A DNA stretch of 4,015 nucleotides from a virus (taxonomy: Duplodnaviria; Heunggongvirae; Uroviricota; Caudoviricetes), in the IMG/VR virus record IMGVR_UViG_3300029518_000091, positions 1-4,015 of that record. The stretch is one strand, 5' to 3'. Within the stretch, counting starts at the first letter, position 1, and the number at the start of each line of letters is the position of its first letter. A program made the position numbers and the translations under genes. The notes beneath the pieces were generated by a model, which was not told where the DNA came from, searched no databases, and saw only the letters and a list, made by a program, of their open reading frames with translations. Of the stretch, positions 607 through 735 are shown piece after piece.

Positions 607-735
607 GCAAATGTTAACTGCTGCCTGGTTAACATTTGCTGAAAAAGCCTGTTAACATTTTTTCCGCACAACAAACTGAATAATAAAGATAAAAACCGCA
701 AAAATGCCCGGGCAGCCAGTTAACATGTTAACTGC
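607..735. repeat. Cluster of five GTTAACAT 8-mers: 12-bp inverted repeat GCAAATGTTAAC-N9-GTTAACATTTGC (607-639), direct copy GTTAACATTT (651-660), perfect 18-bp palindrome CAGTTAACATGTTAACTG (717-734); candidate terminase-binding/cos-associated or operator sites
   Basis: Read directly from the sequence. GTTAACAT at 628-635, 651-658, 719-726 and its reverse complement ATGTTAAC at 611-618, 725-732. Lies in the non-coding gap between the HNH stop (827) and the terS start (536), with A-tracts at 676-706 between the repeat groups. Confidence 0.6.

Follow-up and report, generated by a model that had tools for sequence, protein, structure and literature searches.

The DNA analysed here is a 4015-bp stretch (the window) in which the lysis genes of a lambdoid E. 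coli prophage, one of the stx-carrying kind, meet its packaging genes. In the 290-bp gap between its HNH endonuclease gene and terS, the gene of the small terminase subunit (TerS), lies an array of short repeats built on the 8-mer GTTAACAT. We think it probable that this array is the TerS recognition part, a counterpart of cosB, of the packaging site (cos) of an HNH-dependent lambdoid prophage with 3' overhangs. The cosB-like reading is preferred because the boxes sit between the predicted nicking site (cosN) and terS, are conserved, have changed in concert and co-vary with the DNA-binding domain of TerS. An earlier sequence-only reading of this stretch had named the repeats as candidate TerS sites, and their position, their footprint, their concerted change and the TerS-linked variation of the boxes speak for it; the location that it gave, between the HNH gene (PF01844, at 827-1192) and terS (PF03592, start at 536), is also borne out. 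The array is an ordinary kind of element, newly delineated for the Terminase_2/HNH cos module; the searches made found no literature description of these boxes for this phage group, the overhang of one relative being all that has been published.

The predicted cleavage site and its surroundings

Two relatives with mapped chromosome ends, Escherichia phage Lys8385Vzw and Acinetobacter phage fEg-Aba01, surfaced in a tblastn search with TerS. The TerS of Lys8385Vzw is 94% identical to that of the window, and its published ends, determined with PhageTerm, are 3' cohesive, CGCCCCCCCT; its record starts with CTCACGCAGAGAAAAAATTCCCGTTTCAGGGCAGTTAACATGTTAACTGG and ends with ...GGACACCGCCCCCCCT. The TerS of fEg-Aba01 also belongs to the Terminase_2 family and is 51% identical to the window's at its N-terminus. 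Its 10-nt 3' cohesive ends, 5'-CGCCCCCCAT-3', were likewise found with PhageTerm and were confirmed by gel analysis of heated and cooled restriction digests (PMC7354433); the record starts with CGCACGCACAAAAAAAATTCCC... and ends with ...GGGGGG-N33-GGACACCGCCCCCCAT. On the strand of the packaging and lysis genes (the - strand, here the gene strand) the window reads GGACAC CGCGCCCCCT CTCACGCAGAGAAAAAATTCCC. Since the mapped ends of both relatives fall on homologues of 766-775, the left end of the packaged chromosome would start at 765, and the 10-nt 3' overhang is predicted at 775-766, with nicks after 776 and after 766 down the gene strand. With the cut placed there, the array comes to occupy +32 to +159, between cosN and terS (+230), which is the position of a cosB. 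The sequence-only reading had put cos within 607-735: the predicted recognition part does lie inside those limits, but the cleavage site, as judged by homology to the two end-mapped relatives, lies outside them, 31 bp upstream of the array.

In gene-strand order the region thus runs from the HNH stop (827) through G7 (817-811), GGACAC/CGCGCCCCCT/CTCACGCAGAG, A6, box P, the T-rich spacer and boxes 1-2-3 to terS (see Table 1 for the boxes). The left-end sequence at 747-765 is identical to bases 1-19 of Lys8385Vzw and homologous to bases 1-19 of fEg-Aba01, and it is conserved in 22 Enterobacterales loci and one Burkholderia phage. The GGACAC flank on the other side of the predicted cut is variant in four loci. 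Most related loci have a run of G6-G9 at the same distance from the cut, as do one satellite-like locus, fEg-Aba01 and the right end of HK97. Two loci have an interrupted run, and in a few it is missing or cannot be read. These alignments, the two end-mapped relatives included, support a reading of the gap as the cos region of an HNH-dependent phage, presumably one with 3' overhangs, and they put the repeats where a cosB-like element would be expected. Searches by blastn with the window gap or with a cos of the compact type (see below) added no further phage records ending in this cos, and in a comparison of IMG/VR contig ends with the predicted cut no coincidence was found.

Some features of the cos core are of interest in their own right. 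The block CTCACGC(A/G)CAGAAAA(A/T)TTCCC together with the cos core (755-781; L349:17-40; L347:1-25) is shared by Acinetobacter, Burkholderia and Enterobacterales, which is unusually wide for non-coding DNA. The C/G run next to the HNH stop (811-821) differs in length among near-identical relatives, either as sequencing noise or as real variation. In PPompW prophages that same run is interrupted by ISEc20, an insertion sequence of the IS110 family (L346:2905-4375), beyond which the HNH and lysis genes are missing; with the insertion and these losses, the PPompW prophages probably no longer have a working cos.

The repeat array

Exact copies of GTTAACAT occur five times, on the + strand at 628-635, 651-658 and 719-726 and on the - strand at 611-618 and 725-732. 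The arms 607-618 and 628-639 (12 nt each, 9 nt between them) are fully complementary (100%), and 717-734 is a perfect 18-bp palindrome, with two 9-nt arms and 0 nt between; a direct 10-mer, GTTAACATTT, begins at 628 and again at 651. The sequence-only reading had listed the five 8-mers, the inverted repeat with its spacer, the direct copy and the palindrome, and all of them are found where it had placed them. The hexamer core of the repeats, GTTAAC, is its own reverse complement, so that the orientation of a copy is set by its flanks only. Five of the seven GTTAAC hexamers in the window fall within 613-732. Clustering was gauged with 20,000 first-order Markov simulations of the window, in which the 8-mer occurred on average 0.12 times per simulated window and in which no case (0/20,000) had three or more copies within 130 bp, the observed number being five. 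The impression that the array is too structured for chance therefore holds up. The claim of phased A-tracts survives in part: the tracts are present (A3 at 685-687, A5 at 691-695, A5 at 700-704), but with spacings of 6 and 9 bp the phasing is partial. The T-rich spacer to which they belong (662-716), which separates the palindrome from the distal boxes, may be intrinsically bent.

A sigma-70-like match at 629-658 on the + strand, with a TG before its second hexamer, is antisense to the late genes and is probably incidental.

Conservation and concerted change of the boxes

The alignment of close relatives (83 sequences, 54 unique) is uninformative about boxes as against spacers, and more distant lineages are therefore needed. 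In one of these, L168, whose TerS is 65% identical overall, the boxes are identical to those of the window at 38 of 38 positions and the spacers at 57 of 90 (63%; Fisher p = 1e-6). The layout, too, is that of the window (palindrome, T-rich spacer, distal boxes, with box 3 kept), with one extra box inserted 11 bp from its neighbour. A second lineage, L169/L170 (TerS 78% identical), has the same A-to-T change at motif position 6 in all five of its half-sites, which read ATGTTTAC or ATGTTTAT, in a setting of spacers that are 59% identical to the window's. Its palindrome is TAAACATGTTTA and its distal boxes are ATGTTTAT, ATGTTTAC and GTAAACAT; box 3 is kept in L169 as GTAAACATTT. Past the array, identity drops to 57% (L168) and 19% (L169). 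The T-tracts and a ATTCAnnnTGTT block are common to the window, L168 and L169, and a similar T-rich stretch is found in L344, a satellite-like locus. The array is kept in L168 and concertedly changed in L169/L170; conservation in phages with a homologous TerS was a test that the sequence-only reading had set. Related arrays occur farther afield: in fEg-Aba01, AAGTTAAA stands in three direct copies on the way from the mapped end to terS, and the Pantoea locus L024 has a set of four boxes, all in direct orientation, that follow GT(W)AACC.

The TerS protein itself matches Pfam PF03592 (Terminase_2) over residues 2-57 (E = 1.4e-8), and it has weak profile matches (E = 0.002-0.008) to the solved small-terminase chains 4zc3, 2cmp and 3zqp. 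We take 2cmp and 3zqp to be from phage SF6, and the matched chains presumably include DNA-binding domains of the SF6/SPP1 type. The TerS proteins of that family bind arrays of short boxes in bent DNA, as at pacL and pacR of SPP1. By these matches the N-terminal ~60 residues are a predicted helix-turn-helix (HTH) DNA-binding domain. In 226 loci with an array of the window type, residues 1-60 of TerS are 97-100% identical; the linker that follows (61-110) goes down to 48%.

Compact relatives and the ancestral terS start

A scan of one genome per species with TerS alignment gave 22 Enterobacterales loci with a full-length TerS at 32-48% identity. Despite this divergence of the protein, a 65-bp DNA block is conserved across genera. 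It reads GGACACCGCGCCCCCTCTCACGCACAGAAAAAATTCCCCTCTGGAGGGTGTAAAC-ATG-TTA-ACA..., its ATG being the start of terS (M-L-T). Salmonella phage FSL SP-016 is also compact, and its entire 106-bp gap between the HNH gene and terS aligns to window 719-825. In FSL SP-016 and 19 genomic prophage loci (20 compact loci) box P aligns to GTAAAC-ATG-TTAAC across the terS start codon, and by this alignment the palindrome of the window is homologous to the region in which terS began ancestrally. The gene start has since shifted 196 bp downstream in the window lineage, and the old ribosome-binding site has been lost.

The second codon of terS bears on what constrains this sequence. Where the box overlaps terS, Leu2 is encoded by TTA in 19 of 20 compact loci (the remaining locus has TTT, for Phe); in all five lineages with a displaced start (the window, L168, L169/170, L024 and L028) it is CTG. 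That TTA is found only where box and gene overlap argues for a DNA-level, non-coding constraint on TTAAC, and for boxes anchored to cos rather than to the terS gene. An upstream box, GT[ATC]AAC(AT), lies at about -29 to -34 in 15 of the 19 compact loci with readable upstream sequence, which gives these loci boxes on both sides of the nicking site. The corresponding position in the window, in L168 and in L169 is an A-run. It is plausible that the window lineage lost its upstream box and gained three downstream boxes.

The relic terS ATG opens a 24-codon hydrophobic open reading frame (ORF), MLTGCPGIFAVFIFIIQFVVRKKC (658-732, -), with its stop within box 1. It was considered as a gene and set aside, as it has 14 codons in L169 and has lost the old ribosome-binding site; it is probably a by-product of T-rich DNA.

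Satellite-like islands

A further set of loci couples the same nicking site with other boxes. The islands L171-L174 and ten IMG/VR loci (L334-L343) carry a primase (D5_N / AAA_25), a Terminase_2 TerS of their own and a PF05065 capsid homologue; the L344/345 island carries AlpA and its own TerS (coordinates L171:1414-3075, L344:1650-2491). Their hosts are E. coli and Salmonella. No HNH homologue was found in the satellite-like loci L171-L174, and no TerL (large terminase) was called among the neighbouring genes of the islands. These islands keep the G-run and cos core of the prophage type, but their boxes are GTTACAC, and the DNA-binding domain of their TerS has KG[W/C]QL as against KGSQL in the window type. 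This pairing of KG[W/C]QL with GTTACAC holds in three TerS lineages: L171/172 together with the ten IMG/VR loci, L173/174, and L344/345. L344 has 6-7 GTTACAC boxes in an arrangement like that of the window, a proximal box at +33 being followed by a T-rich stretch and then by the distal array. It may be that the islands are satellites and exploit HNH-type cos packaging for themselves, much like the cos-type Staphylococcus aureus pathogenicity islands (SaPIs) that carry the Ccm capsid homologue.

A possible mechanism, and what weighs against it

If the array is a cosB-like element, it might work as follows. An oligomer of a Terminase_2-type TerS would bind ATGTTAAC half-sites through its N-terminal HTH domains. 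Box P adjoins the cut; the T-tract DNA would wrap or bend, so that the three distal boxes meet the same oligomer. The TerS complex would position TerL and the HNH protein on cosN, where staggered nicks would leave the 10-nt 3' overhang, and packaging would then run towards terS, that is, to lower window coordinates. The identity of TerS as the binder, the wrapping geometry, the division of labour by which TerL and HNH act on cosN and TerS on the boxes, and the role of the distal boxes are what we infer from the comparisons set out above.

Several points weigh against this reading. The boxes lie next to the part of terS that encodes the DNA-binding domain, so the two could be inherited together through linkage and not because they interact, and the islands may have a helper phage that itself has GTTACAC boxes. 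The compact relatives get by with a single box on either side of the cut, which leaves the three distal boxes unexplained. In close relatives hardly any of the 230 bp between cosN and terS vary, so that boxes and spacers cannot be told apart there. Finally, the consensus for integration host factor (IHF), WATCAANNNNTTR, has no match with up to one mismatch in 537-826. A lambda-like IHF (I1) bend site in the gap was rejected on that account, and an unspecified T-tract bend has taken its place.

Other explanations

It is unlikely, in our estimate, that the boxes are part of cos but are read by the HNH protein, TerL or a bending nucleoid protein in place of TerS. In its favour, the boxes are part of the cos region, the T-tract spacer has the look of architectural DNA, and cleavage of HK97 cos is stimulated by the HNH protein (PMC11331095). 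The islands argue the other way: lacking an HNH homologue or a called TerL, they have their own TerS, the shared cosN and different boxes. Moreover, box type tracks the type of the TerS DNA-binding domain in three lineages, and the IHF consensus is missing.

The history of box P raises the question of whether the repeats have a function at all. They might be relics, duplications of the terS 5' end (ATG-TTA-AC...) left by an insertion of ~196 bp between the old start and the gene, in keeping with the homology of box P to the ancestral terS start and with the resemblance of the present start, GTGCTGACA, to a decayed ATGTTAACA. We consider this quite improbable. Relics would not be expected to stay 100% conserved next to spacers at 63%, nor to change at the same position in five of five half-sites, as in L169; the independent lineages L024, L344 and fEg-Aba01 have related-box arrays of their own; and the rare Leu codon is seen only where a box overlaps the gene.

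An RNA element in the late transcript could also be imagined, the 12-bp inverted repeat forming a hairpin and, maybe, a 24-codon leader ORF (732-658) tuning the translation of terS or the stability of its messenger. The stem of boxes 2 and 3 is kept in L169 with changes on both arms, and the small ORF has the same length, with its stop inside box 1, in the window and in L168. In L169, though, the ORF has only 14 codons, and its old ribosome-binding site is lost. The gene-strand fold of 530-770 is unremarkable (z = -1.8), and a hairpin leaves box 1, box P and the direct-repeat arrays of other lineages unexplained. An Rfam scan of 500-900 at a permissive threshold returned a chance miRNA match only, and a terminator scan of 450-1300 found none. 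This explanation is very unlikely.

We give hardly any credence to the alternative raised in the sequence-only reading, an operator for a dimeric regulator such as the ribbon-helix-helix (RHH)-like DUF3950 protein (1234-1434, +). Such an operator would control a promoter in the gap. Operators do typically contain palindromes and inverted repeats, and the boxes make a sigma-70-like match on the + strand (TTAACA-18-TAACAT at 629-658), but that match runs antisense to the late operon and arises from the sequence of the boxes, which keep a constant distance from cosN from genus to genus. No DUF3950 homologue was found by tblastn in 30 comparison loci, among them three full-array loci of two lineages (L168; L169/L170), whose upstream flank there is 0.5-1.5 kb.

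A modular cos family

Going beyond the TerS recognition element of the window, the comparisons bring up a more general scheme, which we offer tentatively and would rate at somewhat less than an even chance. The cos family would be modular. A near-universal nicking core, G-run...GGACAC/CGC(G)CCCCCT/CTCACGCA-A-tract, would be combined with an exchangeable specificity module, made up of the N-terminal domain of TerS and its private boxes, the box types being GTTAACAT, GTTTAC, GTTACAC and AGTTAAA. As part of the same tentative scheme, the old terS start codon would survive in the lineage of the Stx phages only as one half of a putative terminase-binding palindrome. If the scheme is true, the islands keep the nicking core of the helper and bring their own TerS, boxes and capsid homologue, thereby redirecting HNH-type cos packaging.

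Comparison with known packaging sites

The array invites comparison with cosB of lambda (R3-I1-R2-R1, bound by Nu1). There, too, repeated short boxes of mixed orientation are set between the site of nicking and the gene of the small subunit, and a bend element (putative here) separates the proximal from the distal boxes; the proposed role, anchoring terminase by cosN, is the same. In contrast, the bend in lambda is an IHF site, for which there is no consensus here, and the box sequences are unrelated. Lambda makes a 12-nt 5' overhang, has no HNH partner and uses a TerS of a different family; the relatives of the window phage have 3' overhangs, and the TerS of the window is of the Terminase_2 and not of the Nu1 type.

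The pac site of SPP1/SF6, with its pacL and pacR boxes read by G1P, is nearer in its protein, since its TerS is in the same Pfam family, and it is also an array of short boxes in A/T-tract DNA, bound by an oligomeric TerS (as is proposed here). In SPP1, pacL and pacR flank pacC, and the boxes of the compact relatives flank the cut on both sides in the same way; in the window, however, the upstream box has decayed. The larger difference is that SPP1 packages by headful, without cohesive ends, whereas two relatives that share the cos core of the window have defined 3' cohesive ends.

HK97 resembles the window in the order of its parts: the HNH gene immediately upstream, a 10-nt 3' overhang (here by homology), a G-run ~50 bp before the cut, an A-tract and a TerS site (predicted here) just inside the left end, and, in the compact relatives, terS tens of base pairs downstream. 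Its TerS site, at +15 to +29, lies between the cut and terS (+50) (PMC11331095). The large subunits are distantly homologous (TerL of the close relative L001 against HK97 gp2: 24% identity over 258 residues, E = 1e-7). In the small subunit the likeness ends. HK97 gp1 is without a Pfam match and is unrelated to the TerS of the window (BLASTP E = 0.2), it has one 15-bp site as against five half-sites over 128 bp here, and terS of the window is displaced to +230. The label 'HK97-type' that the sequence-only reading had used therefore fits the HNH gene, TerL, the G-run and the chemistry of the 3' overhang, but not TerS, which is of the Terminase_2 family.

The staphylococcal phages phi12 and phiSLT also have HNH-dependent cos packaging, and cos SaPIs such as SaPIbov5 carry the cos of their helper along with the Ccm capsid homologue (PMC5052747). 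The enterobacterial islands resemble these SaPIs in combining cosN with a PF05065 capsid homologue. They differ in that SaPIbov5 has no functional terS and carries a copy of the complete phage cos, whereas the islands here keep cosN and have private boxes and their own TerS; hosts and sequences are different as well.

What the cos core and its boxes can be used for

Many Stx1a-, Stx2a- and Stx2c-converting phages of E. coli O157 and related strains carry this module. Its cos core and likely boxes tell which DNA these phages can package and transduce, and, once known, could guide the design of cos plasmids or phagemids for use with them. The cos sequence is also a test of the packageability of a prophage, PPompW with its insertion sequence in the cos G-run being an example, and the layout of cos and boxes suggests a route by which satellites could hijack the packaging machinery. 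The variants of boxes and DNA-binding domains form a natural series for the study of how a Terminase_2 TerS reads DNA.

The window and its genes

The window matches 467 phage records, headed by Stx2a-, Stx2c- and Stx1a-converting phages at ~94% identity. All of its major genes are on the - strand (Table 1). Of the 26 phage comparison loci, 24 have an HNH homologue upstream of terS. The annotation of terS in relatives agrees with that given here, and terL, which is outside the window, comes after terS there.

Table 1. Features of the window and of its predicted cos region, with positions relative to the predicted cut where given
Feature	Coordinates	Strand	Remarks
terS (small terminase)	1-536, truncated by left window edge	-	GTG start 536-534; translation VLTTQKRKFALALMSGKNKTASAIAAGYSAKTARVKGSQL...
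terS ribosome-binding site	540-547	-	GGAGGAGG, read from sequence; 3 nt ahead of GTG 536
Box 3	607-618		GCAAATGTTAAC on +, GTTAACATTTGC on gene strand; inverted relative to boxes 1 and 2; +148..+159 from cut
Box 2	628-639		GCAAATGTTAAC on gene strand; +127..+138; inverted-repeat partner of box 3
Box 1	651-661		AAAATGTTAAC on gene strand; +105..+115
T-rich spacer (gene strand)	662-716		T5/T5/T3 tracts and conserved ATTCAGTTTGTTG block at 669-681
Box P	717-734		perfect palindrome CAGTTAACATGTTAACTG; two overlapping half-sites, +32..+49; relic ATG 732-730 (-)
Left-end sequence of packaged chromosome (predicted)	747-765	-	CTCACGCAGAG AAAAAATT on gene strand; A6 tract 749-754
Predicted cosN cohesive end	766-775	-	CGCGCCCCCT on gene strand, AGGGGGCGCG on +; by homology to mapped ends
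GGACAC, cosN flank on right-end side	776-781	-	in nearly all related loci, satellite-like loci and the Acinetobacter phage
Degenerate upstream box	791-799	-	GTAAAAAAC; at the site of GT[ATC]AAC(AT) of the compact relatives, about -29 to -34
C7G4 run	811-821		G7 on gene strand (817-811), about -46 to -52; common to related loci and HK97
HNH endonuclease gene	827-1192	-	directly upstream of cos; PF01844, E = 3.7e-8
DUF3950 gene (RHH-like)	1234-1434	+
TonB_C lipoprotein-like ORF	1566-1907	-	113 aa; N-terminus resembles a lipoprotein signal
Rz	2231-2698	-
Lysozyme	2997-3530	-
DUF1327	3581-3925	-

The start of terS is annotated inconsistently in public records (window 536-620; L006:185-793), some of which have a protein of at least 202 residues that starts upstream. 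Of the possible starts, GTG 536, with its strong ribosome-binding site and the conserved N-terminus M/V-L-T-x-Q-K-R-K, would seem to fit best. Lastly, the DUF3950 gene and the TonB_C ORF, between the HNH gene and the lysis cassette, resemble moron-type cargo, as judged by their Pfam matches.

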